Source: an uncultured bacterium (lineage in GTDB: Bacteria > Nitrospirota > Thermodesulfovibrionia > Thermodesulfovibrionales > CALJEL01). From it: a stretch of DNA of 62,483 nt. A program made the position numbers and the translations under genes. The stretch's first letter is position 1, and every line of letters starts with the position of its first letter. The notes under the pieces are model-generated. The model ran no database searches, had not been told where the DNA came from, and saw nothing but the letters and a program-made list of their open reading frames with translations. This document shows positions 5,989 through 59,639 of the stretch, piece after piece. Where the stretch lies: contig CALJEL010000044.1 in the NCBI GenBank assembly GCA_938074335.1, positions 1 through 62,483 on the forward strand. Direction: 5' to 3'.

Positions 5989-6005
5989 TCTTTTGACATA
6001 CTATA

Positions 6006-14692: not shown

Positions 14693-17600
14693 TACCATCT
14701 CTACCCTGTCTCTTCCTTTTTCCTTGGCAAGTCTGAGCGCCCTTTCTGCACAATGGAGTAATTCCTCCGGTGATTGACCTCTGAATTCAGCAACTCCTAT
14801 GCTCACCGTAAACTTACCCTTTGGCTGTATCTCCTCATGGATAAAGGGATATTCCCTGATCATGTTGAGAAATCTTCTTGATATCTGAAGGGCAGGTTCA
14901 GGAAGTGTGTTTGTAAAGATTATTACAAAGGCATCCTCTCCATACCTGCATACCACATCAGAGCCCCTCAGATTCTTTTTCAGAATCTCAGCAATCTTTT
15001 TAAGGACAATATTCCCATGATATATACCCTGTTTGCTCACATAATGAGCGAAATGATCTATGTCTATAAGGGATATAACAAGGGGTATCTTATATCTCCT
15101 TGACCTCAAACACTCCTGTGCAAGTCTCAACTGAAAATATCTGAAATTGAATAAACCGGTGATCTCATCAATAAGACCTGCCCTTTTTGGATAAAGAAGC
15201 TCCAGCTCCCTTAAATGGCTCAGGAGTTCCTTTGAGCTCAGGGCATCCTTGCTGAGAAGCCTCTCTATCAGGCCTGTAACCTTTATCCTCTCATCCATGG
15301 GAAGGTCACTGTCTGCAAGACCAAAAATAAGTGCATCCTTCGTGGCAGGAGTTTCTCTCAGAGATTGTATGAAAGAGGCGATCGCCTCACCCATGGTAAG
15401 GTCAACAATTACCACATGAGGTCTTATCATAAGTGAAGCCTTCAGCGCCTCCTCAGGGTCTCTATAGTGATGAAATATAAAACCCTCTGATTCAGTCATT
15501 TCTTTGAGATTTGTCCTGCATCTATCATCCTCTGTAACAACAAAGATATTTACTGGCAATCTCTTTCTCTTATGGAGATAAGAAAGTTCACCAAGTTTTT
15601 TGAGGAATAAGGCCTTATCAGCAGGCTTTACAATGTAATCAGTTGCACCAAGTGCAAAGGCAAGTTCCCTTTCTTCAAGGATGGAATGGATAATCACAGG
15701 TATATCCGAGGTAGAGGGATCACCCTTCAATGCCTGAAGCACCTCCCAGCCATCCTTTCCAGGAAGCATAATGTCAAGAATTACGGCAAAGGGTTGAAGC
15801 TCTCTTACGAGTCTAAGAGCCTCGATGCCATCTCTTGCATACTCTACCCTGTAGCCACCCTCCTTAAGATAAATACCAATAAGTTCTGCTGTGGAAGGTT
15901 CATCCTCGGCTATAATCACAAGAGGAGATTCTTTCTCAAACTCTGGTTGTGATATCTTCTTTTTTAAGGTCTCTATGAGCTCAGGTGCTGCTGATGGTAA
16001 GTAGACATGAAAACGGGTTCCCCTCTGAGGAAGGCTTTCAAGGTCTATATATCCACCATGAAGTTCAACAAGTTTTTTTGTCATTGGAAGCCCGAGACCC
16101 GTCCCCTCAATAGCACGGGAAGGATCAAGTTGCTCAAACTCCTCAAATATCCTTTCTTTGTGTTCCTCCGGTATGCCAATACCTGTATCCCATACAGTAA
16201 TCTTGAGAAATTTCCTCCCTGATGGTGCCCATGGAAAGGGACTGATCACATATTCAGCCTCTATTCCAACATTGCCGCCCTCTGGTGTAAACTTAACAGC
16301 ATTACTGAGGAGATTATAAAGTATCTGTTTCATCTTCACCATGTCTGCAACAAAGTCACTCACATCAGTAGAGATCCTTACATTTATGCTGATGGACTTT
16401 TTATCTGCCTGTGGTTTCATCACAAAGACAATCTCATTTATAAGGTCAGGGATTGAAAGAGTGTCTGATACAAGGGTAATCTTTCCTGTCTCTATCTTTG
16501 CAAGGTCAAGTATATTGTTTACAAGGTGAAGGAGGTGTTTACCAGCCTGCATTATATGCTTTATATACCTCTCCTGTGTCTCATTTATATCACCATAGGT
16601 TTTATCAAGAAACAGTTCTGAATAACCCAGTATGGATGTAAGGGGAGTCCTCAGCTCATGACTCATATTTGATATAAACCTTGCCTTTGCCTGATTAGCA
16701 CGCTTGAGCTCTTCATTTATCTTTTCAAGTTCCCTGGTTCTTTCCAGCACCTTTTCCTCAAGCTGTTCATTGAGCTCCTCAAGCTCCCTGTTTTTTCTTG
16801 CAAGCTCTTCCCTTAATCTCTTCTCCTCTGTGATATCCTTGCTTATACCAACAGTTCCGATTATATTACCATCTCTATCCCTGAGCCTTGATATGGTAAG
16901 GCTTATATCAACAGGCCTGCCATCCTTTCTTAAGACCTGTGTCTCATAATTAAAGAGTGCATCCCTCTCATTAAGTATCTCCATTATCCTTTTTCTTTCC
17001 TCTGGATTGACATAGAGCTCTGCTGCGTCCTTCCCCCTGATTTCTTCCTCTGTGTATCCGAGTATCCGTTCTCCACCCTTTGAAAATTTCACTATCCTTC
17101 CTTCATTATCAGTTGTTGCTATCATGTCCTGGGAGTCTTCAAAAACAGCCTGCAGATAGGCAAGGGACTCATCAAGCTCATGTATGAGCCTGAATTTCTC
17201 TATGGCGTGGGCTGCAAAGGCAGAGAAAAGTTGAATAAGCTTCTTATGCCTGTCGGTAAATTTTCTTGGCTTGAAATCATCAAGATAAAGTATTCCAACC
17301 ACTCCACCATCTAAAAGTAAAGGACTGGCAAGGAGTGCCCTTATTCCTTCTTTCTTGATATTGGTGCCTTCAAATAAAGGGTCTTTAAGGATATCTTCCC
17401 ATTCAACAGGCTCCCTCTGACCCAATATGTATCTGCTCAGTCCTTCAGGTCTCGGTCTCCATCTCTTCTGTCTAAAAAACTCTTCGCTCAGTCCCTTGTG
17501 AGCTGCCATGACCATCTCTTCACCCTCAATAAGACTGATGCTTCCAGCAGGTGTCTCTGTGAGTGCCATGGCAGAAATGAGTATGCTCTCAAGAACCTCT

Positions 17601-18506: not shown

Positions 18507-18848
18507 GCCATTAGAAAACCGGCAGTCTGCCTCAAAGTCTTCTTAGACCAGCAGAGCAGTAGTGCAGTAGTTTTTATTAAGGAATTTTTTTAATTATTTA
18601 ACTGCTGCGCTGCTGCTCTACTGCTCTGTTATTGTCTGTTGCTCTGCTGCTCTGTTGCTCTGTTATTGCCTGCTGCTCTACTGCTCTATTAAGGTGTCGC
18701 AGGCGGGGTCCCCAGAAAGTCATTAGATTTTCTGGGGTGTTAGTATTGCCTTTAGAGCACGGACTGAAGACAAGCTTCATCCCGTGAACCCCGAAATAAC
18801 GGCATCTGCCAGTTTTGTTGAAGGGGTTATCAGAAATTTCTATTGGCA
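18507..18848. repeat. Composite hairpin repeat element, copy R4, with a ~90-nt insert
   Basis: GCCATTAGAAAACCGGCAGTCTGCCTCAAAGTCTTCTTAGACCAGCAGAGCAG ... TTAAGGTGTCGCAGG [insert 18704-18793] ... CTGCCAGTTTTGTTGAAGG..AGAAATTTCTATTGGC. The listed ORF 18598..18867 lies inside it and is low complexity. Confidence 0.85.
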
Positions 18849-26792: not shown

Positions 26793-28171
26793 AGATAAGG
26801 TTTCTTGGTGCTACAAAGGGGGTTACAGGTTCATGCTTTTTGCTTGAGATAAATGATTTAAATATCCTCATTGAATGCGGTCTCCATCAGGGAGAGGGAA
26901 ATCACGAGGAAAACTTAAAGCCCTTTGCCTTTGATCCTTCCGGGATAGATTACCTCTTTCTCACTCATGCACACCTTGACCATTCAGGACTCATCCCGAA
27001 GCTCGTAAAGGATGGATTCAGGGGAAGGATTATCACCACTGCTGCAACAAGGGACCTCGTTGAGTTACTCCTTTTTGACGCAGCCCATATTCAGGAGGCA
27101 GATGCAGAATGGGCAACAAGAAAGGCCCTGAGGAGTGGAAGACCTCCAGTAACCCCCCTCTATACAGTTGATGATGTAAGGCAGGTCCTGCCATTATTTG
27201 ATATAAAGCCCTATGATAAGATAAATCATCTTGGCAATGGCATAAAATACAGATTCCTTGACGCAGGCCATATACTTGGCTCAGGGACACTTGAGCTCTG
27301 GTATCAGGATGGTCCTCAGGAAAAGAAGATAATATTTTCAGGAGATATCGGTAAAAAAGGAAGCCCCATTATAAAAGACCCTGAGATAACAAAAGAGGCA
27401 GATTATATAGTGATGGAGGCAACATACGGAAACAGACTTCATAAGCCTCTTGAGGAAAGTATAAATGAGCTTGTAGATGCTATAAAGACCACATTCAAAA
27501 AAGGCGGCAATGTCTATATACCATCTCATGCAGTTGGAAGGACTCAGGACCTTTTATATATCCTTAATAATCTTGTCAGAGAAGGAAGGCTCTACAGGAT
27601 TCATGTCTATCTTGATAGTCCCCTTGCAGAGGAGGCAACAAAGGTATATCTTGCCCATCCAGAATGCTTTGATGAGGAGGCAATGAAACTCTTCACAGGA
27701 AAGAGGATAGGCGACTCTATAGTCCTTCACTTTGTAAGACGAACAGAGGATTCAATGGCACTGAATAAAATAAGCTCAGGCATCATTGTTATTGCAGGAA
27801 GCGGTATGTGTGAAGGTGGCAGGATAAGACATCATCTCAAGCATAACCTCTGGAGACCTGAATGCAGCGTGATATTCGTGGGATTCCAGGCAAAAGGCAC
27901 CCTTGGCAGGAGGATTGTAGAAGGAGCTTCCAGCGTTAATATCCTTGGAGAGGAGATTGCTGTGAGATCCTCTATATATACGATAAATGGATTTTCAGCC
28001 CATGCAGACAGAGACGGACTCCTTGAATGGCTTGGAAACTTTGCTGATTCACCCGAGATATTCCTTGTGCATGGTGAAGAAGATGTCCTCAATTCTTTCA
28101 AAGATTTAATTATAGAAAAATATGGTCTTAAGGTCACCATCCCTGAAAAGGGAGAAGAATTTGTAGTTTAA
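26789..28171 (+). CDS. MBL-fold beta-CASP hydrolase (RNA-metabolising metallo-beta-lactamase family)
   Basis: HAHLDHSG motif, later DAGHILGS, ATYG, and the C-terminal SAHAD motif. At 460 aa it fits beta-CASP proteins. Confidence 0.85.
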   Translation: MKIRFLGATKGVTGSCFLLEINDLNILIECGLHQGEGNHEENLKPFAFDPSGIDYLFLTHAHLDHSGLIPKLVKDGFRGRIITTAATRDLVELLLFDAAHIQEADAEWATRKALRSGRPPVTPLYTVDDVRQVLPLFDIKPYDKINHLGNGIKYRFLDAGHILGSGTLELWYQDGPQEKKIIFSGDIGKKGSPIIKDPEITKEADYIVMEATYGNRLHKPLEESINELVDAIKTTFKKGGNVYIPSHAVGRTQDLLYILNNLVREGRLYRIHVYLDSPLAEEATKVYLAHPECFDEEAMKLFTGKRIGDSIVLHFVRRTEDSMALNKISSGIIVIAGSGMCEGGRIRHHLKHNLWRPECSVIFVGFQAKGTLGRRIVEGASSVNILGEEIAVRSSIYTINGFSAHADRDGLLEWLGNFADSPEIFLVHGEEDVLNSFKDLIIEKYGLKVTIPEKGEEFVV

Positions 28172-28279
28172 TCGGCAGATTTCTAAAAAACTTTAGCCAT
28201 TCACCAATTCACCAAAATTCTACTGGTGGCAAAAGTAACAGTTGAGTCATCACAGAGCTTTTTGATTTTTGAACCCCCC

Positions 28280-28306
28280 TAAAGTTTCACCTTGAGTAAT
28301 CCGAAT
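28280..28306 (+). promoter_or_regulatory. Candidate sigma28 (FliA)-type promoter for flagellin
   Basis: TAAAGTTT (28280-28287), an 11-12 nt spacer, then (A)TCCGAAT. The consensus is TAAAGTTT-N11-GCCGATAA. The -35 is perfect and the -10 is partial. Confidence 0.4.
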
Positions 28307-28431
28307 CTAAAAGTGAAGGCCAAAAAAACGGGATGAAGGAGGTGATGAAGATAGTTAAAGCTCCCGAGGCCTGATATTTAAAACCCCGGTAAGAATTACC
28401 GGAAAGATTTCTCAGAAGGAGGTATTTAAAA

Positions 28432-29250
28432 ATGGCTATCAATGATATCACCCTTACCGCTGGAATGCGGAGTAACCTTTTAAGTCTTCAGAAGACAGCA
28501 GAACTTTTTGACAGGACACAGATAAGACTCTCAACAGGTAAAAAGGTAAATTCAGCCCTTGATGACCCTGTCAATTACTTTGCAGCAAAGTCTCACATGA
28601 GCAGGGCATCTGACCTGGCAGCCCTTAAGGACATGATGAACGAGGCGATCCAGACTGTGAAGGCTGCAGATGCAGGACTCTCTGCCATTGAGTCACTCAT
28701 CTACCAGGCAAAGTCACTCGCCCAGTCTGCACTTCAATCCAATGATGCAACAGTAAGAGCAAATCTTGCAGCCCAGTTTAATGAGATCCTTAACCAGATA
28801 GACAATGTAGCAGCAGACTCAGGCTATCGCGGTACAAACCTGATAGACAGTGGAACAGATAATTTAGTAGTTGTGTTCAATGAAGATAATACAAGCACAC
28901 TCACCATCAATCATCAAAACGCCACATCAGCAGGACTTGGTATCAATGCTGCTGGTGACTGGGCAAATGATACGGATATCCAGACCTCAATAAGTGAGCT
29001 TGATGCAGCCATAGTCACCTTAAGACAGTATTCCCAGACACTTTCCTCCAACCTTTCAGTGGTGCAGATAAGGCTTGACTTCACAAACAATATGATTAAT
29101 ACCCTTACAAAGGGTGCAGAGAATCTCATACTTGCTGATATGAATGAGGAAGGTGCAAACTTACTCATGCTCCAGACCAGACAGGCACTTGGTGTGACAG
29201 CCCTTAGCCTTGCATCCCAGGCAGCTCAGTCAGTACTGAGGTTGTTCTAA
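28432..29250 (+). CDS. Flagellin (short, ~270-aa type)
   Basis: The conserved N-terminal block (LTAGMRSNLLSLQKT...RLSTGKKVNSALDDPVNYF) and C-terminal block (LGVTALSLASQAAQSVLRLF) are present. AGGAGG lies 8 nt upstream. Confidence 0.92.
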   Translation: MAINDITLTAGMRSNLLSLQKTAELFDRTQIRLSTGKKVNSALDDPVNYFAAKSHMSRASDLAALKDMMNEAIQTVKAADAGLSAIESLIYQAKSLAQSALQSNDATVRANLAAQFNEILNQIDNVAADSGYRGTNLIDSGTDNLVVVFNEDNTSTLTINHQNATSAGLGINAAGDWANDTDIQTSISELDAAIVTLRQYSQTLSSNLSVVQIRLDFTNNMINTLTKGAENLILADMNEEGANLLMLQTRQALGVTALSLASQAAQSVLRLF

Positions 29251-29257
29251 ATTCCAT

Positions 29258-29283
29258 AAGGCAGGGGCTTTTGCCCCTGCCTT
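29258..29283 (+). terminator. Putative terminator hairpin after flagellin
   Basis: AAGGCAGGGGC-TTTT-GCCCCTGCCTT is a perfect 11-bp stem 8 nt after the stop. The trailing T-tract is weak. Confidence 0.55.
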
Positions 29284-29302
29284 GATTAATTAAAGGTCTG
29301 TC

Positions 29303-29782
29303 ATGGTTGTAAGAGGGGTAGAAGAAGGACCCCATCCAGTACCTCAGATAAGGTCTGAGGATAAAAGCCAGATGTCTTTTTCTCGAGACAGGGTTAATGA
29401 GAAAGAAGTGACTGTGGGTCTGAAAGAACCCTTTGACTTCAAAAAGATATACAGCATAAAATCAGAAATTTATAGTTCAGTGCGTCTTTTAAAAGAAGAG
29501 GATATCATGGATCTAATAGAAAATATTTCAGAAGACCTTTTTAATATAAACAAGATATTCCCACCCTATCCACCAGGAGGTGAGGAACGGATAAGCACTC
29601 TTAAGAGTTTTATTGCCTTCAGGACCCTTATAGAAAGGCTTACCATACCGCCAGAACAGACAGAAGAGATAACGAGACTCTCTGCAGAGCTTGCAGAGCA
29701 AAAAAGTCTTGACATCAAGCACACCCTTTCCAGTGAAAAGACCAGTCTAACCAAAGAGACTGCCTTCTTAAAGGAATTTTAA
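29303..29782 (+). CDS. Hypothetical protein (159 aa) in the flagellin regulatory cluster
   Basis: ORF track. No domain recognised, and it does not look like FlaG. It is tightly followed (1 nt) by flbT. Confidence 0.5.
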   Translation: MVVRGVEEGPHPVPQIRSEDKSQMSFSRDRVNEKEVTVGLKEPFDFKKIYSIKSEIYSSVRLLKEEDIMDLIENISEDLFNINKIFPPYPPGGEERISTLKSFIAFRTLIERLTIPPEQTEEITRLSAELAEQKSLDIKHTLSSEKTSLTKETAFLKEF

Positions 29783-29783
29783 T

Positions 29784-30182
29784 ATGCCTCTTAAGATAAA
29801 CCTTAAACCCGGAGAAAAGATAATCATAGGTGGAGCGGTAATAAAAAATGGCGAACGACCGGCAACACTTTTTATAGAAAATAAGGTCCCTCTCTTAAGA
29901 GAAAAGGATATCCTGAAAGAAGAGGATGCTGTTACCTATTGCAGCAAGATCTATTTTGTCATACAGCTCATGTATATTGATGGCAAGAATATGCTTGATT
30001 ATCACAACATCTACTGGAGGCTGGTGAGAGAGCTTGTTGAGGCAGTTCCAAGGACAACAGGTATAATTGACAGGATAAGCCAGAATATACTTGAGGAAAA
30101 TTATTACCAGGCATTGAAGCTTGCCAAAAAACTCATTGAATTTGAAAAGGAGGTATTAAAGGATGTTAAAAACAGGCGTTGA
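29784..30182 (+). CDS. flbT: Flagellar biosynthesis repressor FlbT
   Basis: MPLKINLKPGEKIIIGGAVIKNGERPATLFIENKVPLLREKDIL matches the FlbT N-terminus known from Caulobacter and Brucella. Confidence 0.8.
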   Translation: MPLKINLKPGEKIIIGGAVIKNGERPATLFIENKVPLLREKDILKEEDAVTYCSKIYFVIQLMYIDGKNMLDYHNIYWRLVRELVEAVPRTTGIIDRISQNILEENYYQALKLAKKLIEFEKEVLKDVKNRR

Positions 30183-30534
30183 GGCTTACAGGGATGTTCA
30201 GAAGGCCACGCTTTCAGGCAGGGAACTGGAGGCATCAGTTCTTGTAAAGGCAGCACATCTTCTCAAGGAGTGCAAAGACAGATGGAATGATCCAGACAGG
30301 GATCTAAGACTTGATAATGCCCTCAGATACAATCAAAGGCTCTGGAGTTTATTTCAGACAGAACTCTCAAGACCAGACCATCCCATGCCAAAGAATTTAA
30401 GAGAAGACCTTCTGAGTCTGAGCCTCTTCATTGATAAAAGGACCTTTGAATTAATGGCATCACCCTCTCCAGAGAAACTTGATATATTGATAAAAATAAA
30501 TCTCAACATTGCTGCTGGTCTGAGTTCAAAATAA
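30163..30534 (+). CDS. flaF: Flagellar biosynthesis regulator FlaF
   Basis: AYRDVQKATLSGRELEASVLVKAAHLLKEC...NQRLWSLF matches the FlaF pattern (PRELEA..LL.AA..L; N..LW). Confidence 0.75.
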   Translation: MLKTGVEAYRDVQKATLSGRELEASVLVKAAHLLKECKDRWNDPDRDLRLDNALRYNQRLWSLFQTELSRPDHPMPKNLREDLLSLSLFIDKRTFELMASPSPEKLDILIKINLNIAAGLSSK

Positions 30535-30537
30535 AGG

Positions 30538-30742
30538 GTACGGAATAGATACCGCCAAACCTTGAAAGTGCGACAGAGCGACAGCACACCTGACGGTGCA
30601 GTGAGTTAGTGAATTAGTGAAATAGTGAATTAGAAAATACTAACTCACTAACTCACTTGCATGCTAACTCACTACTTTAGCTCTGTCGCACTGTAGCACT
30701 ATGGTGTGGCAGACTGACAGTTTTCTATCGGCAAAATAGGGG
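30538..30742. repeat. Composite hairpin repeat element, copy R8
   Basis: GTGCGACAGAGCGACAGC...GTGAGTTAGTGAATTAGTGAAATAGTGAATTAG pairs with CTAACTCACTAACTCACTTGCATGCTAACTCACTACTTTAGCTCTGTCGCACTG. The right end is GGCAGACTGACAGTTTTCTATCGGCAAAATAGGGG. It starts 3 nt after the flaF stop. Confidence 0.85.
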
Positions 30743-30790
30743 TATTCGGGCCTCTCGCTTATAGTATGAACTACATGTTAAAATCATTTC

Positions 30791-32689
30791 ATGGGTCTTG
30801 GTAAGATAAGTGACCTTGCAAATCCAAAGACAGTAATACTCTTCTTTTTACAGTTTTTTCTCATAATCGGGATCCTCTCCTATCGCTCCTACAGGGACTC
30901 CTCAGAGACCTGTATTAAATGCCATGGAGATAAAGAAAGGATGGAAGAGCTTGGTTATCCTCAGTTCTATATGACTGAAGAGGAGGTAAAAAAACAGACA
31001 GGCCATAAATATACCACATGCAGGGATTGCCATCTTGGAAATGGAAGGACAATGGATCCTCAGAAGGCTCATAAAGGGCTCCTAAGGCCCTTATTTGTCA
31101 GTGAGGCTGGAGAGGTCCTTGATAGAAAAAAACTCTATGATAAAGGAGAGACAGAACTGAACAGGCTTCTTCCTCATGGCAATGATAAGCTCTTTGAGAT
31201 GCTTCCAAAGAAGAGGGACAAAAAAGGTAATCTCTATATCCATCCAGAGGTTAGAAATCTCCTCTGGCATGACAGAGACCCCGAGACACTGAATTTTGAC
31301 CCGAGGATTGCCCAGAAGACCTGCTCAAAATCAGGCTGTCATGTGGAGGAATTAAGACAGTTCAAAAAGACCATAATGGCAAGGAATTTCAGGCAGAGGA
31401 CCATGAGGACATGGCTTGAGCCCTATGGACCTCATAATTGCGGGCCTTCCTTTGCAGACCCTCCACCACCTGAGGTTCTTGAAGGTGCTGAATTTGATTT
31501 TAATAACACAGTGAAGATCCAGAAGGAATTAAATATAGGATTCTCAAAGGAGCAGGCAGTAGTAAAACAGAGATTTTGTAATGTCTGTCATGCAGGATGC
31601 CTTGATTGCCACTATACACCAGGAAAGGATGGAAAGGTCCATTCCTTTACAAAGAGGCCTGATTCCTATTCCTGTGCTGGATGGGGCAGGGGCAATAGCA
31701 TATGCCATCCAGGTGCCATGCAATCCCGAAGGGGTGAAACCTATATTGGAGGGGATTATTCTATTCCAAGAGGAATGGCTCCTGATATACATTTTAAGAA
31801 AAACATTCATTGCAGGGACTGTCATCAGACAGGAACACTCGGTATGGGTGATATGGAAAGAAAGGCTACATGTCAGGATTGTCATGTAGAGATTGAGGAG
31901 GCCCATGAAAGCTCCATCCACAAAGATCTTACATGCACAGCCTGCCATGTCCGAAGGGCAGGTGGTTACCAGATAACCATATGGGGTAAGGGGCTTGTGG
32001 GAGGAAAGGAAAATCCCTTTAAGAAATACTCACTCTATTACGGAATACAGGAACCATTGATATTAATGAAAGATCAGAAGGGTAAATGGTTTCCTGTAAA
32101 GATATGGCCTCATGCAGTAGGAAATATAAGACTGGATATAAAGCCATCTGGTCTGAAATTCCGCTGGCCTGATGGAAGTACGAGGGATATGTATGCCCTG
32201 ATGGGTAGCTTTGATGGCCTTCCAGGTGCAAACAGACACCTGCTCTGGTTAGAGATACAGGAGGTAAGCCATCCCTTTGAAAGGTCTCGAAGGTGTAAAG
32301 ATTGTCATAAAGAAAGACAGGTCTCCCTTTCAAGATGGGAATTTCAGGATGATCAGGGTGCAGAGCCCTTTAAGGGTTCATACAGGATAGTTGCTGACAG
32401 AGATGGTTTAAGGATAGAGGATATGAAGAATACTACTCCCATAAGGCTCCTTGAGGGCTACAGGCTTGAGGACTTTGCCTCATGGCTCTATCTCAAGGAT
32501 AAATGGCAGATAAAGGGAGACTTCTCCATAAAGACAGATAGGAAAAAATATGAAAGATATCTCAGGCTTGATGAAGAGATAAGAAAGACCCCTGTAGCCC
32601 TGCTAAAAGAAAGGCTTGGTATAAAAGAAAGGCTAAAACCAGAGATAATAAAGGCAGTTGCTATACATAATCCTGATTTATTAAAATAA
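30791..32689 (+). CDS. Membrane-anchored multiheme cytochrome c (8 canonical CxxCH motifs)
   Basis: N-terminal [19 protein letters not shown]. CxxCH motifs: CIKCH, CRDCH, CNVCH, CLDCH, CRDCH, CQDCH, CTACH, CKDCH. Also CSKSGCH (CX4CH) and [12 protein letters not shown] (CX9CH). The stop is 5 nt before the gspG-like start. Confidence 0.9.
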
Positions 32690-32694
32690 CTACC

Positions 32695-33129
32695 ATGAAG
32701 ATGCAAGATAAAGGTTTCACCCTTATTGAGGTCCTTGTTGTAATCTTTATCCTGAGTATCCTTGCTGCCCTTGTGGCACCAAAGATAATAGGCAGGACTG
32801 ATGATGCAAGGATAGCAGAGGCAAGGCTTCAGATAAAGAACTTTGAGACAGCCCTGAAGCTCTTTAAACTTGACAACGGCTTTTATCCATCAACAGAACA
32901 GGGGCTTGAGGCATTGATAACAAAACCCACCATCGGAAGGATACCACCTAATTACAGGGAAGGTGGCTATCTTGAGCAGAAAAAGATACCCCTTGATCCC
33001 TGGGGAAATCCCTATATCTATCTCTGTCCTGGCATCCAGGGAGACTATGATATAATCTCCTATGGTGCTGATGGTAAAGAGGGAGGAGAGGGAAAGGACG
33101 CTGATATCACGAACTGGAATATCCAGTAA
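32695..33129 (+). CDS. gspG: Type II secretion major pseudopilin GspG-like
   Basis: Prepilin leader MKMQDKG|FTLIEVLVV, then the GspG core: [47 protein letters not shown]...DPWGNPYIY...[16 protein letters not shown]. Confidence 0.9.
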
Positions 33130-33574
33130 CTGTTACTTCTGCACCAAAGGTTTTACTCTCCTTGAAATTATTGTTGTCCTGTTCATCATTTCCATAACCC
33201 TTGGGATCGTCCTTCCATCTATCAATATAAAAAAGTCACTGAGCTCTGAGGCAAAGAGGTTTGCCTCTGTGCTCAGGTATATACTTGATGAGGCAGCAAC
33301 AAAGAAAGAAACCCTTTATCTCACTGTAAAGATTCAGGAAAAGAGGATATTCTATGAGGTCTCGGAAGGCAAAAGACAGGAGTCTCTGCCTCACCTGGTA
33401 GGGATAAAGACCTCTTCAAGAGGAGATCTCAAAGACTCAAGCCTGACCATATTATTTTATCCCTCTGGTGTGAGAGAGGCCTTTGTCTTTATATTTCAGG
33501 ATAAAAAAGAAAGATATGAGGTAAAGATAAATCCAGTAAGTAACAGGGTAAGGATTGAAAAGGGTAGTATATAA
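33062..33574 (+). CDS. Minor pseudopilin, GspH-like (start uncertain)
   Basis: [25 protein letters not shown] is a prepilin-type N-terminus. The listed start overlaps gspG by 68 nt. The true start is probably a non-ATG codon near 33100-33120. Confidence 0.65.
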
Positions 33575-33908
33575 TTGCAAGAAGGGCTTTACCCTCATAG
33601 AGGTGCTTGTAAGCCTTGCAGTGGTGGGCTCCCTTGTGGTTGCCCTTTACAGCCTTCTTTATCATATGAATCTTTATATAGAGCATGAAGACCTCCTTAA
33701 GGCAACACTCCTTGCAAGAGAAAAGCTCTATGAAGAGCCCTTGCAGAGAGGCCCTGAGCAGGCAAGATCCTCACCTGATGATAGATTCTCTTATAGAAAA
33801 GAAATTATTAATACACCCTTTCAGGGAATAAAGCTATTAAGGATTACGGTTCAAAGTAATGGTAGAGACCTCATAACAATGGAGAGATTGATAAGGCTAA
33901 ATGAATGA
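33555..33908 (+). CDS. Minor pseudopilin, GspI-like
   Basis: [23 protein letters not shown] prepilin N-terminus, 117 aa. Confidence 0.7.
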   Translation: MKRVVYNCKKGFTLIEVLVSLAVVGSLVVALYSLLYHMNLYIEHEDLLKATLLAREKLYEEPLQRGPEQARSSPDDRFSYRKEIINTPFQGIKLLRITVQSNGRDLITMERLIRLNE

Positions 33909-34497
33909 AGGCATCCTTCAGCCTGTTTCTGATAGAGGATTCACCCTTATAGAGGTCCTTATTGCCATTGCCATTGCCTCAATCGTGGCAGGGGCATTAC
34001 TGAGCATATATGTCTCTGTTGAGAAGACTCTATCTGCCATGGAAGGCAGGGCACTAAGACTCGAGGAGGCAAGGAATCTCCTTGATATGCTTTCAAGAGA
34101 AGTCTCCTCTGCTTATTTTAATAAGGATGATAAAAGGACCTTCTTTATCATAAAAGACAGGGACATTTATGGAAGAGCAGCCTCTATCCTGAGCTTTACA
34201 GCCTTCAGAGAAAGGGGTCTGATGAGCATTACTTACGAGGTTAAGGAAGAAGGGGATAAGAAATTAATTCTTATTAAAAAAGAAGGGCCTGCCTTCAGGG
34301 AAGAAGGCTTAGAGGCAGAACTTATTGAGGATATGGAAGGTTTTCTTGTGGAGATCCCCAGGGCAGAAGGTTTCCTGAGGACATGGGATACAGAACTTAC
34401 AGGAAGACTCCCTGAAAGGATAAGGATAACCCTCAGCATGAATATAAATCAAAAAAGGATTGATCTCACCGAGACAGTGATACCAAGGCTCCAATGA
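33901..34497 (+). CDS. Minor pseudopilin, GspJ-like
   Basis: [21 protein letters not shown] prepilin N-terminus. At 198 aa the size and position fit GspJ. Confidence 0.7.
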   Translation: MNEGILQPVSDRGFTLIEVLIAIAIASIVAGALLSIYVSVEKTLSAMEGRALRLEEARNLLDMLSREVSSAYFNKDDKRTFFIIKDRDIYGRAASILSFTAFRERGLMSITYEVKEEGDKKLILIKKEGPAFREEGLEAELIEDMEGFLVEIPRAEGFLRTWDTELTGRLPERIRITLSMNINQKRIDLTETVIPRLQ

Positions 34498-35378
34498 ACC
34501 CTGCCAGAGACAATAAGGGCTTTATACTTGTACCTGTGCTGATTATATTTGCAGTTGTAATAGCAATGGTGGGAGACTTTTCCTATGAGGTATTTGTTGA
34601 TACAGGAGCCCTGAAAAACTATGTCATATCCCAGAGGCTCTCTGTGCTTGGCAGTTCGGCAATGGATTTTTCCATTGAGCATATAAGCAATTATCTCAAG
34701 GGCTTGGATTATACTTATGAGAGAGAATTACTTCTTGACCTTTCAAGTTTTGTTGAATCAGAGGGCCTGAACCTTGCTGTTATCCTCAGTGATGAGAATG
34801 GAAAGTTTAATCTCAATTCCCTTTATACCCACAGCCTTACAGATAAGATAAAGGCAATTGAGGGTCTTAAAAGGCTCTTAAGAAGACTCAAGCTTAATGA
34901 GGATATCAGTCTTATAATCTCTGACTGGATAGACAGGGACAGTGATGAGGAATACCCTCAAGGAGAAAGGTATTCTAAAAACAGGCCCCTCTACAGCATT
35001 GAAGAACTCCTCCAGATACCAGGGATAACAGAAGAGATCTTTGAAAAACTCAAGCCCTATGTAACCTGTTATACTGATGGAAGGATAAATATAAATTCTG
35101 CTCCAGCTGAGGTCCTTCTTACCATTGATGGTATAACAGAGGATATTGCTGAAGCAGTCATAAATTACAGAAAAGAAAGGCCCTTTGAAAGGTCTGAGGA
35201 TCTGAAGAATGTCCCTGGCATAAGCCCTCACCTTTATCAGTCCCTTCAGGGAAGATACACTGTAAAGGCACTGATTTATGGAATAACCATAAGGGCAGAA
35301 CAATCAGGTATAAAGAGATATATCCACGGAGTTGTTAATACAGAGACATTAAGATTAAAATATTACAGGGAAGAATAA
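34494..35378 (+). CDS. Minor pseudopilin GspK-like
   Basis: NKGFILVPVLIIFAVVIAMV N-terminus without the Glu5 residue. The helix-hairpin-helix-like block NINSAPAEVLLTIDGITEDIAEAVINYRKERPFERSEDLKNVPGI is typical of GspK. Confidence 0.75.
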   Translation: MNPARDNKGFILVPVLIIFAVVIAMVGDFSYEVFVDTGALKNYVISQRLSVLGSSAMDFSIEHISNYLKGLDYTYERELLLDLSSFVESEGLNLAVILSDENGKFNLNSLYTHSLTDKIKAIEGLKRLLRRLKLNEDISLIISDWIDRDSDEEYPQGERYSKNRPLYSIEELLQIPGITEEIFEKLKPYVTCYTDGRININSAPAEVLLTIDGITEDIAEAVINYRKERPFERSEDLKNVPGISPHLYQSLQGRYTVKALIYGITIRAEQSGIKRYIHGVVNTETLRLKYYREE

Positions 35379-35379
35379 G

Positions 35380-36435
35380 ATGGCAAGGCTTCTGTTCATA
35401 GAGATTAATAATAACTTTAATGTAATCCTCTCTGAAAAGAAAGGAAAGGTCTTTAAGATATTAAAGACCGTAGAGATCAATGGTGATGAGCCTTCAAGGA
35501 TAAGGGCTGAATTAAACTCAGGATTATCCTGGTTTAAGGCTCCACTCTGTTACATAAGCCTTCCAGTGAGGATGTTTGGATACAGGATAATAGAACTTCC
35601 CTTTAAAGAAGAAGATAAGATAAGGGATGTCCTTGCCTTTGAATTAAAAGAAAAGGTAATGCAGCCTGTTGAAGACCTCGTTTATGATTTTGTAATGCTT
35701 CCCTCAGATAATGATAAGACCCAGAAGATACTAACTGTTTATACAGGAAAGGATGAACTGAGTAGCCTTCTTAAAAGACTTTCAGAGGCTAATATAGAAC
35801 CTGATGTTATAGGCTCCATTTCTCTCAGAAACTTAATTGAAAAAGGCTTCAGGGCTGAAGACCTGCTGAATCCACCTCCTTATAAAGAGGATCTTTTAGA
35901 ACTTCTTCAAAAGGAGGCAGAAAGGCCTGTGATAAACCTCTTAAGAGGAGGCCTTGGCATGAGTATAGAAAGAGAGGCCCTCTTAAAAAGGTTAAGGATA
36001 ACAAATATACTTCTTCTTGGCATATCATTGATCCTTACCCTGTCCTTTGGTCTATCAATTAAGAGGAATTATTCAGAGGCATTAAAGCTGAGGACATGGA
36101 TTAATGATGAATACAGAAAAGAATTCCCTCAAGAAAAGATAAAGGATGAGATACTGCAGCTAAGATCCCACTTAAAGGAGGTAAAGGATAAAAAGGATAT
36201 ACTTCTGGGAATACCTGCGGTTGATACACTTAAAAAGATCAAACCTGGTGACACTATAAATATTGAATCAGTTGATATGGACGTCAAGGGCATCACCCTT
36301 AAAGGAGAAGCCAGAGACCTTGGAGGCATTGAATCATACAGGGAAAAACTGAAGGAAACTCTTAAGAATCCCACCATTATAGAGAGCGGACAGTTTTCAG
36401 GCAAGATAAGATTCACCCTAAAGGCAGAAAGATGA
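35380..36435 (+). CDS. GspL/PilM-like bitopic assembly-platform protein
   Basis: A cytoplasmic ~200-aa domain, a single TM (ITNILLLGISLILTLSFGL) and a periplasmic C-terminal domain. Its position after gspK fits GspL. Confidence 0.5.
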   Translation: MARLLFIEINNNFNVILSEKKGKVFKILKTVEINGDEPSRIRAELNSGLSWFKAPLCYISLPVRMFGYRIIELPFKEEDKIRDVLAFELKEKVMQPVEDLVYDFVMLPSDNDKTQKILTVYTGKDELSSLLKRLSEANIEPDVIGSISLRNLIEKGFRAEDLLNPPPYKEDLLELLQKEAERPVINLLRGGLGMSIEREALLKRLRITNILLLGISLILTLSFGLSIKRNYSEALKLRTWINDEYRKEFPQEKIKDEILQLRSHLKEVKDKKDILLGIPAVDTLKKIKPGDTINIESVDMDVKGITLKGEARDLGGIESYREKLKETLKNPTIIESGQFSGKIRFTLKAER

Positions 36436-36932
36436 TAAAGATCTTCTATAAGACCCTGATACTCACCGCAGTTGTTCTAACAGTGTTAATAGCAGGCCTT
36501 TTCACAAAGGCAGCTTCAGAAAGGGAACTGGAGCATCAGAAAAAAAGGCTCAGGGAATTCCAGGGTCTCATACAGGAATACAGGGGGATTAAAGAAGAGC
36601 TATCAAAAACAACTGCCTTCACCACCAATCAGGCAAGGAAAAATAAAGCCCTCATGGATGAACTTAATTCTGTGCTTAACACAACAGGTCTTAAGGAAAA
36701 GATCAGGGCCTTAAAACAGACTCCTGTTAAAAAGGAAACTCCCTTTGGTGATGTTGAAGAGGCAGAGCTTATTATGGAAAGGCTTACCATGAATGAGATC
36801 GCAAATCTCTTCTATCAGATAGACCAGAGGCATTCCATCACGATCAGCAGATTATCTATTAAAAGGGCCTTTGATGCACCTGAACTGCTGAATCTTACAA
36901 TGATGCTCTCTTCGCTCAAAGAAAAAAGATGA
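36432..36932 (+). CDS. GspM-like bitopic protein
   Basis: 166 aa with an N-terminal TM (LILTAVVLTVLIAGLF). 4-nt overlaps on both sides. Assigned by size, topology and position only. Confidence 0.45.
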   Translation: MIKIFYKTLILTAVVLTVLIAGLFTKAASERELEHQKKRLREFQGLIQEYRGIKEELSKTTAFTTNQARKNKALMDELNSVLNTTGLKEKIRALKQTPVKKETPFGDVEEAELIMERLTMNEIANLFYQIDQRHSITISRLSIKRAFDAPELLNLTMMLSSLKEKR

Positions 36933-37684
36933 ATATCCATCTTAGATGGCTGAAATATCTGGCCCTGAGTCCAGTTTTTCTGATTCTAATTATAGAAGGC
37001 CTCTGGCTTATTGCCATACCTGAAGGTCTTATAAAAGAAAAAATCCTTTCTCATATCCCTGCTGGATTTGATATTGAAATAAAGGGAATCAGGAAAGGTC
37101 TTTTTCCTTCTTTATATATACAGGACCTTTCTCTCAGGACAAAGGATTCAGGGATTGCCATCAATGAGATCAGGGCATCCATTCACTTTCCTTCTTTATT
37201 AAAAGGAAGGCTCATGATAGCTGTAAAGGATGGAGGGATTAATGGACTCATTGGTTTATCAGGGAATATAGCTGTAAAGGTGAGGGGCTACAGTTTATCT
37301 CAGGTCAAAAATCCTGTTTTAAAAGGTGATGGTGTTATTCACATGGAATCAGAAATAGTAAAAGGAAAAGGAAAGATGGATTTTTCACTAACTGATGCAA
37401 GGCTTGAGCCCTTTAATGACAATGGAATATATATCCCTTTAAATCTTATTGACACAATAAAGGGCAGACTTGATATTGATGGAGGAGATATTATCATTCA
37501 GTCTATAACCCTTTCTGGCAAGGACATCTATGGAAGGGTTAAAGGTAAGATAAGGGATAACAGGGCTGAGCTTGTCATTGAGCTCATGCCAGAAAAGGAG
37601 TTAAATAATACACTTATGATCTTGATGCCCCACTCCATGGTATCTCCTGGATATTTCAGGATAGAGGTCAAAAGACAATTATGA
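36929..37684 (+). CDS. GspN-like protein
   Basis: 251 aa with an N-terminal TM (LALSPVFLILIIEGLWLIAI) and a beta-rich remainder. It is the last gene of the pseudopilin operon. Assigned by position and size. Confidence 0.4.
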   Translation: MNIHLRWLKYLALSPVFLILIIEGLWLIAIPEGLIKEKILSHIPAGFDIEIKGIRKGLFPSLYIQDLSLRTKDSGIAINEIRASIHFPSLLKGRLMIAVKDGGINGLIGLSGNIAVKVRGYSLSQVKNPVLKGDGVIHMESEIVKGKGKMDFSLTDARLEPFNDNGIYIPLNLIDTIKGRLDIDGGDIIIQSITLSGKDIYGRVKGKIRDNRAELVIELMPEKELNNTLMILMPHSMVSPGYFRIEVKRQL

Positions 37685-38985
37685 AAAAACCTCTTATTGC
37701 CATAGTTGGAAGACCAAATGCTGGTAAATCCACCCTTTTTAATCGCCTCATCAGGCAGAAAAGGGCGATAACAGAAAAGACACCTGGTGTAACCCGTGAC
37801 AGGATAGAAGCAGAGGCAGAATGGGAAGGAAAGAGGTTCATTCTTGTGGATACAGGAGGCTTCACAGATATTAAAGACACCATAATGACGCAGGTGAGAA
37901 AACAGGCACTCTATGCAATTGAGGAGGCAGAGCTGGTGATACATCTTCTGGATGCAAAGATTGGTGTAACCCCTGAGGATATGGAGCTCATGAGACTACT
38001 TAAAGAAAAAAACAAAAAGGTGATATTTGCAGTAAACAAGATAGATACACCATCAAAAAGGGATTTAATATACGAATTCTATAAACTTGGTGACGAGCCT
38101 GTGCCTGTCTCAGCCCAGACAGGCTATGGAATTGAAGAGCTTATGGAAAAGGTCCTCTCACTTATTCCGCAGAAAGAAAAGGAAGAGACTCGGGGTCTTC
38201 CGAAGATTGCCATAGTGGGCAGGCCGAACACAGGAAAATCTACCCTCGTAAATACACTGCTTGGGAAGGAGAGGATGATAGTGAGTCCCATTCCTGGCAC
38301 CACAAGGGATTCTGTTGATTCAATCTGCAGATATTATGGCAGGCAATATCTGCTCATTGATACCGCTGGCATAAGGAGAAAGGCAAGGATTGAGGATAAT
38401 ATTGAATATTATTCTATCACAAGGGCAATGAAGAGCATAGAAAGGGCTGACCTGGTAATCCTCCTGATAGATGCAGTGGAGGGGATTACTGATCAGGACC
38501 AGAAGATAGCAGGACTGATAAGAGAAAATAATAAATCTGCAATTGTGTGCTTTAACAAATGGGATAAGATTGAAGAACCTGATAAAAGACTGAAATATCT
38601 TCTTTCCGAATTTCAGAGAAAATTACCCCATCTGAGTTATGCACCTGTACTTACCATTTCAGGACTTGAGAAAAGGAGGGTTACGAAAATATTTCCCCTT
38701 ATTGATGAGATACTTTCTGAAAGAAAAAAGAGGATCACTACAGGAGAATTAAATAGAATTTTAAAAAAGATAAAGGAAGAGCTCATGATACCAGCCTATC
38801 ATGGTAAGGAGATAAAGATCTATTATCTCACACAGGCAGAGACAGAACCACCTGGTTTTGTCCTTTTTGTGAATCTTCCTCAGGCAATAAAAGACCATCA
38901 TAAAAAATACATAGAGAATCTCCTGAGGGAAAGATTCGGTTTCAAGGGAAGTCCATTGAGGATTTACATAAGGGAGAGCAAATAA
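37681..38985 (+). CDS. der: Ribosome-associated GTPase Der (EngA), double G-domain
   Basis: Two G1 loops (GRPNAGKST and GRPNTGKST), two DTGG/DTAG motifs, NKID/NKWD motifs, and a KH-like C-terminus. Confidence 0.95.
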   Translation: MKKPLIAIVGRPNAGKSTLFNRLIRQKRAITEKTPGVTRDRIEAEAEWEGKRFILVDTGGFTDIKDTIMTQVRKQALYAIEEAELVIHLLDAKIGVTPEDMELMRLLKEKNKKVIFAVNKIDTPSKRDLIYEFYKLGDEPVPVSAQTGYGIEELMEKVLSLIPQKEKEETRGLPKIAIVGRPNTGKSTLVNTLLGKERMIVSPIPGTTRDSVDSICRYYGRQYLLIDTAGIRRKARIEDNIEYYSITRAMKSIERADLVILLIDAVEGITDQDQKIAGLIRENNKSAIVCFNKWDKIEEPDKRLKYLLSEFQRKLPHLSYAPVLTISGLEKRRVTKIFPLIDEILSERKKRITTGELNRILKKIKEELMIPAYHGKEIKIYYLTQAETEPPGFVLFVNLPQAIKDHHKKYIENLLRERFGFKGSPLRIYIRESK

Positions 38986-38987
38986 AA

Positions 38988-39842
38988 ATGCAGGCCTTCA
39001 CAGTTAAAACACCCTCCTCACTTCAGGAATATCTCCTGAAACAGGGTTTCAAGAGAAACCGGATAAGACAGCTCCTTAAATATGGTTCCCTTTATGTAAA
39101 TGGAAAGGTTGTAAAGAGATATGACCATCCCTTAGTGACAGGAGACAGGCTATCCATTGAGATTAAAAAAGAGGCATCAAAAGAGATCCTTCGGAGATTT
39201 AGAATAAAGCTCCTTTATGAAGATGACCACATTATTGTGATTGATAAACCTCCTGGACTTTTAAGCATTGCCACCGAGACAGAAAGGCAAAGAACTGCCT
39301 ACTATATAATCAATGAATATCTTAAACAAAAAAACGAAAGAGTCTTCATTGTCCACAGGCTTGACAGGGATACCTCTGGAGTCATGGTTTTTGCAAAGAC
39401 AGAAGAGGCAAAAAGAAGACTTCAGTCCAGCTGGCATAATGTAGAAAAAATATACCTCTGTCTTGTAGAGGGAAGGCCTGAGAAAAAAGAAGGTATCATA
39501 ACAGGGTATCTTAAAGAGACAGAAACCTTTCTTGTTCATCCTGCAAAAGGCAGTGTTAATGCAAAATATGCTGTAACAGAATACCGTGTCTTAAAGGAAG
39601 GCAAAGATTATACGCTCCTTGAGGTAAGAATCGTTACAGGTAGAAAGAACCAGATACGAGCGCATCTCTCAGGTATAGGTCATCCAGTGGCTGGTGATAA
39701 AAAATATGGTGCAAAAACAGATCCCTTTAAAAGACTATGCCTTCACGCCTCAAACCTATCTTTCAGACATCCTGTAACAGGAAGGATAATGAGATTTAAT
39801 AGTAAGATACCTGAATGGGGAAAGGACTTTCAGATCATTTAA
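38988..39842 (+). CDS. RluA-family pseudouridine synthase with an S4-like N-domain
   Basis: HRLDRDTSGVMVFAK is the catalytic Asp motif. Also GRKNQIRAH. The N-terminal S4-like segment is LQEYLLKQGFKRNRIRQLLKYGSLYVNGK. Confidence 0.88.
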   Translation: MQAFTVKTPSSLQEYLLKQGFKRNRIRQLLKYGSLYVNGKVVKRYDHPLVTGDRLSIEIKKEASKEILRRFRIKLLYEDDHIIVIDKPPGLLSIATETERQRTAYYIINEYLKQKNERVFIVHRLDRDTSGVMVFAKTEEAKRRLQSSWHNVEKIYLCLVEGRPEKKEGIITGYLKETETFLVHPAKGSVNAKYAVTEYRVLKEGKDYTLLEVRIVTGRKNQIRAHLSGIGHPVAGDKKYGAKTDPFKRLCLHASNLSFRHPVTGRIMRFNSKIPEWGKDFQII

Positions 39843-39868
39843 AAACACTTCCAGAAAATTTCAGTATT

Positions 39869-40579
39869 TCAAGGTAATAAAATATTCCCGAAAATTAGAT
39901 CAAACCCCTCAATTTTAAAACCAAGGCTGGAATAAAAATTCATAGCATTAATATTTTTTAATTGAGTACGTACCTTCACAGATGTAACGCCCTCATGGTG
40001 GAACCAGTCCAGTGCCTTTTCCATTAAAGCCCTCCCTATACCTTTTCGCTGCCACTGTTCCAGTACCCCGATTAGAATAATTTTACCTATTTTATTTTGC
40101 TTTTTGCAGGTAATGTAACCCTTTTTAGGGTAATAAAAAACAATATCGGCTGCATCGCCCACAATTGAGTTCTCTATCCATACTTCAAATAATCTTTCAG
40201 CATCATGCCTGTTGAAAAAAGGATCGCTGTAGAATCGACTATCTTTGAAAAGTAAAGAACTTATCTGTTTTAATTCATAAATATGTGATGGTTCAGCTTT
40301 GATGATATGATTCTTGATCTTCGTGCCAGGACGGGCAATAAATTTCTTTACATCAATCTTCCACGTTACACCTATATCTGTAAGATAGAAACCATTGGAG
40401 GTTAAAAGTTTAATTAAAGAGGTATCCTGTTTTTCAAATCGACACAGGAGATAATGAAATCCATCAGCTTTCGCCTTATTTAAAAGATCCTTTACATTAG
40501 AAAAGGCCATATCTGATAGAATAACTTCACCTATTTTTTTCCCAAAAAAATTACTATCCCAGCTAAGTTCTTTTATCAT
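39869..40579 (-). CDS. GNAT acetyltransferase, WecD/RffC-like (dTDP-4-amino-4,6-dideoxyhexose N-acetyltransferase)
   Basis: The N-terminal LSWDSNFFGKKIGE matches the WecD start motif. The C-terminal GNAT core is QRKGIGRALMEKAL. Confidence 0.65.
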   Translation of the reverse strand: MIKELSWDSNFFGKKIGEVILSDMAFSNVKDLLNKAKADGFHYLLCRFEKQDTSLIKLLTSNGFYLTDIGVTWKIDVKKFIARPGTKIKNHIIKAEPSHIYELKQISSLLFKDSRFYSDPFFNRHDAERLFEVWIENSIVGDAADIVFYYPKKGYITCKKQNKIGKIILIGVLEQWQRKGIGRALMEKALDWFHHEGVTSVKVRTQLKNINAMNFYSSLGFKIEGFDLIFGNILLP

Positions 40580-53726: not shown

Positions 53727-54797
53727 TTACCACTTAAATGCTGCTGAGGTCCTGAATGTTTCCCTTGCTATTAAGAAGTCATCAATATGCTGATGGGTGA
53801 ATGGCAGTCCTGTAACCTTGAAGAACTTTTCCCATCCAATCCTCTCTATCCACTCACCAACACGCTCATGCTTCATCGCACCCTTTTCATAGGCATTGAG
53901 TATCTTCTTAACCGCATCTACCACCTCTGGCCATCTTGGCGGATTATTCTTTATAAAAGGCACGACAAGCTTTGAGAATTTCGGAGGAGTCCTCAGATTA
54001 CCCACTTTTCCTCCAGCCACAATGGCAACTCCATCATACTCAGGGTCATGAATCTCCATTGGAGGGCAGACTGTAAAACAATTACCGCAGTACATGCATT
54101 TGTCTTCCTTGATCTTAACACTCTTCTTTGCTGGATCAGGGCTTATTGCACCTGTAGGACATGCAGCAATGGTAGATGGTATCTCGCACATATTGGGTAC
54201 CTTTTCATGATCAATCTGCGGTATTTTTCTATGAACTGCCACAATTGCTATATCAGAGCAGTGGACCGCACCACACATATTTGTGCAGCATGCTACTGCA
54301 AGCCTGACCCTGTTGGGGAGTTCCTTCTTCGTAAAGTACTCTGCAAATTCATCCATTAAGACCTTCACAAGACCGGATGCATCAGATGCTGCTGAGTGAC
54401 AGTGTATCCATCCCTGTGTATGGACTATATTTGATACCCTCGGGCCTATTCCACCCATCATATAGCCCTTCTTCTTGAGCTCTTCTTTAAGGGGGTTCAG
54501 GTTCTTTTCATCAGAAACAAGAAACTCTATATTATTTCTTGTGGTAAACCTCAGATAACCACCGCAGTACTTTGCTGCAATATCTGCAATATCTCTGAGT
54601 GTATCTGTGCTCAGAAGCCTTGGTGATGCAACTCTTACAGACCATATCTTGTCTCCACTGTTGGCAACATGGACCATTACACCTGGCTCGAGTATCTCAT
54701 GATACTTCCAGTTTCCATAGTTCTTCTGTATAACCGGGGGTAAAAAATCCTTATAATGAGGTGGGCCAATATCTGTTCTTCTCTGTGGTGCTGCCAT
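53727..54797 (-). CDS. dsrB: Dissimilatory sulfite reductase beta subunit
   Basis: Siroheme/[4Fe-4S] cysteine clusters (CHSAASD..., [13 protein letters not shown]) and a ferredoxin insert ([12 protein letters not shown]). It pairs with dsrA 26 nt upstream. Confidence 0.92.
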
Positions 54798-59625: not shown

Positions 59626-59639
59626 CCCTTTACGCCCTG

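Follow-up and report, generated by a model that had tools for sequence, protein, structure and literature searches.

The window analyzed here is a 62,483-nucleotide stretch of DNA from an uncultured bacterium of the Thermodesulfovibrionales (GenBank assembly GCA_938074335.1, contig CALJEL010000044.1), in which the gene of a multiheme cytochrome c is directly followed by the type II secretion genes gspG to gspN. The cytochrome stop codon ends at position 32689 and the ATG of gspG lies at 32695, which leaves a spacer of 5 nt. The arrangement is real, and it is judged to be an ordinary, split type II secretion cluster that stands beside an uncharacterized respiratory cytochrome. Two functionally separate units probably came together when the ancestor of a small clade of Thermodesulfovibrionales underwent a single rearrangement. 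A break between gspF and gspG would have set gspG–N right behind the cytochrome gene and ahead of der. The first unit would be a self-promoted Thermodesulfovibrionia gene for an inner-membrane-anchored, periplasm-facing cytochrome with 8 to 10 hemes. The second unit would be the distal half of an ordinary type II secretion cluster, whose pseudopilins and L/M/N platform may work as usual with GspC, GspD, GspE, GspF, and a prepilin peptidase that are encoded elsewhere in the genome. The original prediction, made from the DNA letters, had described a 632-aa anchored cytochrome with 8 CxxCH motifs 5 nt ahead of gspG, and the open reading frame (ORF) calls agree with it.

Distribution of the cytochrome–gspG adjacency

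All nine examined members of the clade, namely the window and the loci L001, L002, L004, L081, L083, L086, L224, and L225, share the adjacency of cytochrome gene and gspG. The order of the window, from the cytochrome over gspG to gspN and on to der, is repeated in L081, L083, and L086. In a neighbor-joining tree of the cytochrome, seven adjacency loci form one clade that has the Thermodesulfovibrio group as its sister; L224 (67% identity) and L225 (81%) were added to this clade by their arrangement and identity. The grouping of the adjacency loci in one clade indicates that gspF and gspG were separated only once.

The canonical gsp(C-D-)E-F-G-H-I-J-K-L-M-N order is found in about 50 of 57 GspE loci from Thermodesulfovibrionales and other Nitrospirota, and neither the cytochrome nor der is present in any of the 57. 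L082 takes the form gspE-gspF-gspG to gspN, and L084 (GCA_049323875.1) harbors the full cluster from gspC-D-E-F-G to gspN with S8 peptidase genes at its flanks. Nine genomes (JAOUJR01, JBKQMP01, JBBIPQ01, JACRGU01, JACQXE01, JBEKCV01, JASEGS01, JBBISG01, and JAJYJJ01) contain both units on separate contigs.

A neighborhood census of the cytochrome covered 80 loci from one genome per species, at 53–90% identity and with flanks of up to 10 kb in either direction. The cytochrome is conserved across the Thermodesulfovibrionia, and gsp genes, as detected by tblastn with the window proteins, lie within 10 kb in three of the 80 species loci (L001, L002, and L004); the other 77 are without gsp neighbors. 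Downstream sequence of at least 1.5 kb is available in 73 of the 80 loci. A missed gspG is ruled out because gspG is 75–84% identical across relatives, the range that is also found between the window gspG and its counterparts in canonical clusters. Conservation of the adjacency in related genomes, which the original prediction proposed to check, therefore holds for the clade itself (nine of nine members), but not for the 77 species loci or the roughly 50 canonical clusters.

The junction between both units is plastic. Its spacer measures 3–22 nt in the window, L081, L083, L224, and L002, and about 270–290 nt in L001, L004, and L086, where it is filled with arrays of 8-mer repeats. In L225, a Uma2-family gene (11928-12464) is located between the cytochrome gene and gspG. 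An MNT/HepT toxin–antitoxin (nucleotidyltransferase/HepT) pair lies between gspJ and gspK in L086 (11933-12764) and L225 (14571-15402). At the distal end, a 4-nt overlap between gspN and der is kept in the window, L081, L086, and L225, and the gspN–der linkage is conserved at least as well as the linkage of the cytochrome and gspG. Because der is as tightly linked although no one would count it among secretion genes, close linkage carries little functional weight. The case illustrates how a tight, conserved-looking operon junction can arise from one rearrangement, with der as an internal control.

The same data bear on a functional coupling of both units, in which the pseudopilus pushes or displays the cytochrome, or both form a periplasm-spanning electron conduit, and co-transcription is selected. 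The short spacer in five clade members and the absence of a terminator from the junction in the window are consistent with such a coupling, as is a linkage that was held through deep divergence and varied upstream contexts. Precedent is given by the cytochromes MtrC and OmcA in Shewanella (PMC3279761) and by the proposal that Geobacter PilA acts like a pseudopilus (PMC9239076). Coupling is nevertheless unlikely: The linkage has a single origin, and in 77 of 80 species, as well as in the nine genomes that have a canonical cluster too, the cytochrome gene lies apart from gsp. Neither length nor heme motifs set the clade cytochromes apart, their N-terminus resembles an uncleaved anchor without lipobox or signal-peptidase site, and the cytochrome model is without fold or sequence similarity to solved structures, those of the MtrC/OmcA type included. 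The junction has furthermore taken up repeat elements and the Uma2-family gene, and der is linked at least equally tightly.

The dedicated cytochrome export or display device and the periplasm-spanning conduit, both of which were raised in the original prediction, thus found no positive support in view of the anchor, the unlinked orthologs, the tolerant junction, and the der linkage. Its third suggestion, chance adjacency, comes closest to the outcome. An adjacency without dedicated function is favored, but it is historical, dating from one rearrangement in one clade, rather than a momentary coincidence. It is quite improbable that the break was fixed since it placed the pseudopilus and platform genes under the cytochrome promoter, and thereby under control of the respiratory state, or since the pseudopilus presents or releases the anchored cytochrome toward the outer membrane as part of an electron-transfer device. 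If coupling were true, a pseudopilus and a multiheme cytochrome would be hard-wired to each other in the genome of a sulfate-reducing Nitrospirota lineage, which would bear on the debate over filament systems in extracellular electron transfer.

The gspG–N genes and their partners

Profile scores, prepilin motifs, and matches to the L084 proteins support the set of gspG, H/I/J/K-like, and L/M/N-like genes that had been recognized earlier, all of which lie on the + strand. The major pseudopilin gene gspG (32695..33129) scores 176 bits with TIGR01710 (cut-off 88.85) and 143.8 bits with PF08334, and its leader MKMQDKG is followed by FTLIE, which together make up a prepilin N-terminus. Three genes for minor pseudopilins carry prepilin motifs and are positional orthologs in the canonical order, with scores under the cut-offs: the gspH-like gene (33062..33574, TIGR01708 51.4 bits, cut-off 80, motif from 33149), the gspI-like gene (33555..33908, TIGR01707 28.7 bits, cut-off 44.35), and the gspJ-like gene (33901..34497, PF11612 19.7 bits and TIGR01711 25.2 bits). 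The gene of the minor pseudopilin GspK (34494..35378), which belongs to the tip, exceeds the cut-offs of PF21687 (64.1 bits) and PF03934 (37 bits). GspK additionally has a prepilin N-terminus, reaches 120 bits with NF037980 (cut-off 130), and matches GspK of L084 with an E-value of 3e-30.

The assembly-platform proteins are represented by a gspL-like gene (35380..36435, TIGR01709 37.3 bits, under the cut-off of 65; L084 GspL, E 2e-37) and a gspM-like gene (36432..36932, NF040576 19.8 bits, under cut-off; L084 GspM, E 1e-16), and a gspN-like gene (36929..37684, TIGR04411 43.9 bits versus a cut-off of 50; L084 GspN, E 2e-28) completes the set. Positional counterparts of GspL, GspM, and GspN are also present in about 50 canonical loci. 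The following gene, der (37681..38985, + strand), encodes the EngA GTPase (TIGR03594, 543 bits) and overlaps gspN by 4 nt. The spacing within gspG–N is mostly −4 to +1 nt. This fits the overlaps of 0–4 nt and small gaps given in the original prediction, with the exception of the G/H (68 nt) and H/I (20 nt) overlaps in the longest-ORF calls.

The eight gspG–N genes are under purifying selection. All of them are intact in nine genomes, and their dN/dS against five relatives is 0.04–0.31, similar to der, the cytochrome, and flagellin. A decaying remnant, that is, a nonfunctional leftover of a broken secretion cluster, would match the separation of the cluster from its core genes. The intact genes in nine genomes and the dN/dS of 0.04–0.31, obtained where dS is saturated, make this explanation extremely improbable and imply that working partners exist.

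In agreement with the original prediction, the window harbors no gene for GspC, GspD, GspE, GspF, or a prepilin peptidase: tblastn with the L084 proteins gives no match for GspC/D/E/F at E ≤0.01, and among the window ORFs of at least 110 aa neither these proteins nor a prepilin peptidase candidate are present. A working type II system with gspCDEF elsewhere in the genome is expected. Circumstantial support for it comes from X1, a DNA run and the sole public run in which the window is found, at a depth of 6.4–7.3. X1 contains a 2,954-bp contig with a depth of 7.22 that aligns in three pieces to Nitrospirota gspE at about 79–84% nucleotide identity and additionally matches gspD over 35 nt at its 3′ end. 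Within X1, this cytochrome family was detected on the contig of the window alone. A protein search with GspE of L091 gave 120 matches, all at least 76% identical, among which none is assignable to a clade assembly.

The clade may instead have lost gspC/D/E/F altogether, with gspG–N being assembled by, for example, PilB/PilC/PilD/PilQ of a type IV pilus into a hybrid filament. No gspC/D/E/F gene is seen in the 62-kb window or in the viewed parts of the 60–99-kb contigs of L081, L086, and L225, and three scans gave none from three clade genomes, as such a loss would have it. GspL pairs with GspE in known systems. The purifying selection on GspL, GspM, and GspN argues against the loss, as does the gspD–gspE contig that occurs at the depth of the window in the source metagenome. 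The scans are also limited by their choice of patterns and by the consideration of the best 80 matches, and the clade genomes are incomplete bins. An orphan gspG–N set is, on balance, improbable.

Several points weigh against an ordinary split cluster joined to the cytochrome by history alone. Three scans of species-representative genomes are weak negatives: the one with the full-length GspE alignment, which relied on query-specific N-terminal patterns, yielded 57 loci with none from the clade genomes JBDOIG01, JBKBPW01, and CAMTWD01, and those with alignments of the GspE core and of GspF gave no clade contig among the best 80 of at least 600. The X1 contig is tied to the window by depth and similarity alone. 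The adjacency has persisted through saturated synonymous divergence (dS >1.5–2 to L086, L002, and L083) and outlasted changes further upstream, where SLT/NadA genes are found in L083 and L224 and the flagellin cluster is inverted in L002; selection for linkage could be a cause of this persistence. Finally, the promoter, the membrane topology, and the co-transcription described below are predictions drawn from the sequence. The ordinary split cluster stays the probable explanation, and the clade then provides an example from nature of how a type II secretion cluster can be divided between gspF and gspG.

The cytochrome and its gene neighborhoods

The cytochrome gene (30791..32689, + strand) codes for a membrane-anchored multiheme cytochrome c of 632 aa from an uncharacterized family. 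In addition to its 8 CxxCH motifs, the protein carries two noncanonical candidate motifs, CSKSGCH (CX4CH) at residue 178 (178–184) and the CX9CH motif C295-X9-C305-H306 (295–306). Both of them are invariant across 49 homologs, as are 17 histidines, so nine or ten hemes are plausible, and the heme number is put at 8 to 10. A lone cysteine, Cys217, is likewise invariant and located within a strongly conserved stretch (residues 211–223); by analogy with other sulfur-active cytochromes it might bind a heme or take part in catalysis. The AlphaFold2 model (pLDDT 78.6, pTM 0.79) comprises an N-terminal helix (12–35), a heme-rich region up to about residue 390, a β-sandwich from about 390 to 550, and C-terminal helices. 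The protein would accordingly combine an NrfH/NapC-like anchor and first hemes with a heme-rich core and a C-terminal β-sandwich that is without a solved relative.

The N-terminus contains an 18-residue hydrophobic stretch and has neither a lipobox nor an obvious signal-peptidase site. The first cysteine, C41, is part of a CxxCH motif. These features suggest an uncleaved inner-membrane anchor that would leave the protein facing the periplasm. Substrates of type II secretion are freed into the periplasm or are lipoproteins. The uncleaved-looking anchor would therefore make the cytochrome a poor substrate of type II secretion.

The cytochrome has more than 470 homologs, and the best 120 share 57–89% identity over almost the full length. 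Those with a named source belong nearly all to the Thermodesulfovibrionales or other Nitrospirota. When 1.84 billion representative proteins were searched exhaustively with a profile, only 166 matches came up, about a dozen of them full-length clusters, and the family is therefore narrow. Its carriers include a cultured bacterium, Thermodesulfovibrio sp. N1 (L040). The length and all heme motifs are invariant, regardless of whether the gene is linked to gsp or not. A Foldseek search of the AlphaFold2 model against the Protein Data Bank (PDB) revealed no relative below an E-value of 1, and in a profile search of PDB sequences the only matches were to NrfH (weak) and HdrA (insignificant). Models that are built without hemes often perform poorly in structure searches. 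Literature searches found no description of the cytochrome family or of its linkage to gspG. The original prediction is thus probably right in considering the arrangement undescribed, but that alone does not make it functional.

Clustering of the flanking ORFs revealed that the neighbor contexts of the cytochrome gene are recurrent and mutually exclusive, and most of the neighbors are housekeeping genes without relation to it. A gene for a RodZ-like protein precedes that of the cytochrome in 26 loci, and an RNase R gene follows in 17. YmdB is located directly upstream in nine loci, most of which have RarA and RNase Y preceding it. ThiD-RadA follows downstream in four loci and a methyltransferase in six. 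A Rieske protein, cytochrome b, and the C-terminal subunit of the latter adjoin the cytochrome in 11 of the 80 loci (L003 at 2557-5907, L062, L065, L066, L074, and L071; convergent in L006, L011, L012, L015, and L022). In five of these 11, the cytochrome gene immediately precedes the others on the same strand, at a distance of −4 to 175 nt. In the tree, the neighborhood is spread over four or more separate branches, which include the sister group, L003, and two distant clades.

The Rieske/cytochrome b neighborhood is the best functional clue and suggests that the cytochrome may be the partner of a bc-type complex, which in several other lineages is its neighbor and would be its best candidate partner here as well. 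A role as a respiratory electron-transfer protein appears likely. No Rieske or cytochrome b gene is present among the window ORFs of at least 110 aa. As a narrow Thermodesulfovibrionia family that recurs beside Rieske/cytochrome b genes, the cytochrome is worth characterizing as a respiratory component of sulfate reducers.

Putative promoter and transcription

The extended −10-like box TGTTAAAAT (30776..30784, + strand) lies 6 nt upstream of the cytochrome ATG and is a putative leaderless promoter. It is found at the same position in L001, L004, L081, and L083. Ten other Thermodesulfovibrionales loci outside of the clade (L005, L006, L008, L011, L012, L015, L017, L021, L022, and L030), eight of them in the Thermodesulfovibrio group, have TGyTATAAT 5–6 nt before the cytochrome ATG. 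The upstream genes differ in these loci, often with a terminator hairpin just before the box. As the position of the box is kept whatever gene is upstream, the cytochrome would have its own conserved promoter and a leaderless mRNA.

The scan of the window for promoters and terminators shows no terminator-like site between the cytochrome gene and gspG, an interruption that the original prediction had considered; its counts are otherwise near the shuffled expectation. A promoter-like match at 32658-32687 is weak, at chance level, and was rejected. With no terminator at the junction, read-through and co-transcription from the cytochrome into gspG are likely. Transcripts that start at the cytochrome promoter would then probably run into gspG as a by-product of position, which is no evidence for a device.

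Repeat elements and flanking genes

The flanks of the block are as originally described, with a repeat element upstream and der downstream. The upstream element (30567..30700, no strand assigned) is a nested palindrome of tandem 8-mers, in which four copies of AGTGAnTT and their complement are flanked by the arms AGTGCGACAG and CTGTCGCACT. In X1, its word depth is about 280 versus about 7 for its flanks, and Logan contigs break there. It belongs to a family of intergenic nested palindromes with 8-mer units such as AGTGAnTT, CAGAGCAG, GGTGAATn, and CTTCAGCC, of which the window holds copies at 30567-30700, 14566-14701, 5745-5993, and 18545-18687. The same class of element fills the gap between the cytochrome gene and gspG in L004 (2025-2315), L086 (9721-10001), and L001 (10950-11219). 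The nested palindromes look like a class of repeats that is mobile or expanding in this lineage.

A gene for a tetratricopeptide (TPR)-repeat protein of 393–395 aa lies between flaF and the cytochrome gene in L081 (6837-8024), L086 (6614-7795), L225 (8801-9982), and L001. In the window, a 256-nt spacer (30535-30790) that contains the repeat element takes its place, and a search of this spacer for remnants of the TPR gene found none.

Further upstream, at 28432-30534, the window codes for a flagellin, an unassigned 159-aa ORF, and the regulators FlbT and FlaF (NF009432 120.9 bits, under the cut-off of 153, and NF009435 124.8 bits). FlbT and FlaF are best known from Alphaproteobacteria and occur here in a dsrAB-bearing Nitrospirota lineage. 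The dsrAB genes noted in the original prediction are found on the minus strand of the window (dsrA at 54824-56020, dsrB at 53727-54797). Directly upstream of the flagellin group, L081 (1-3672), L086 (1-3861), and L225 (868-4863) carry proS, ppx/gppA, and a GGDEF gene. In the window, these genes lie at 58240-62199, about 30 kb off and beyond the flagellin group, and the displaced block therefore points to further local rearrangements in this lineage. An Rfam search of 27000-40000 gave no match.

Comparison with known systems

MtrC and OmcA are lipoproteins whose genes are located away from gsp. As in the window, multiheme cytochromes here go together with genes of type II secretion in an organism that respires anaerobically, and in Shewanella oneidensis type II secretion moves both proteins as surface cytochromes (PMC3279761). 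In Geobacter, PilA filaments have been proposed to be pseudopilus-like in their action (PMC9239076). The window cytochrome differs from MtrC and OmcA in that it is of the anchor type without a lipobox, and its tie to gsp is positional only. An identity of the MtrC/OmcA type was rejected, since a lipobox cysteine, a Foldseek match in the PDB below E 1, and a PDB profile match are all absent.

With the NapC/NirT/NrfH family (PDB 2j7a, chain C), the cytochrome shares an N-terminal membrane helix and a first CxxCH motif directly after it. The resemblance is weak, with an E-value of 0.0019 over residues 15–85 for TIGR03153 and of 0.003 over about 40 residues for NrfH in the PDB. In contrast to the family, the cytochrome is three to four times longer, would bind 8 to 10 hemes instead of four, and has an extra β-sandwich domain. 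Membership in this family of tetraheme proteins of about 150–200 aa was rejected (TIGR03153 18.2 bits versus a cut-off of 134.2), and the likeness is that of the anchor and the first hemes.

Multiheme cytochromes that also occur in Thermodesulfovibrionia include MccSep, a soluble 49-kDa pentaheme selenoprotein polysulfide reductase (PMC13510729), and ExtN/ExtO of Geobacter. Residues 249–389 of the window cytochrome show a weak local match to ExtN/ExtO (NF040967 and NF040968). Identity with MccSep or ExtN/ExtO was rejected, with 39.7 bits for NF040967 and 39.6 bits for NF040968 versus a cut-off of 200 and with a differing architecture (PMC13510729).

Complexes of a Rieske protein and cytochrome b with a c-type cytochrome resemble the present case in that an orthologous cytochrome adjoins them in the 11 loci named above. 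They differ from it in that the window is without such genes, and the association is known from the gene neighborhood alone.

The closest parallel to gspG–N is the canonical gspC–N cluster, for example that of L084. Both have the same genes in the same order from gspG to gspN, and the window proteins K, L, M, and N are recognizably orthologous (E 1e-16 to 2e-37), although H to N are only 26–40% identical to those of other lineages. A further difference is that the clade of the window has the cytochrome in place of gspC–F and carries der after gspN.

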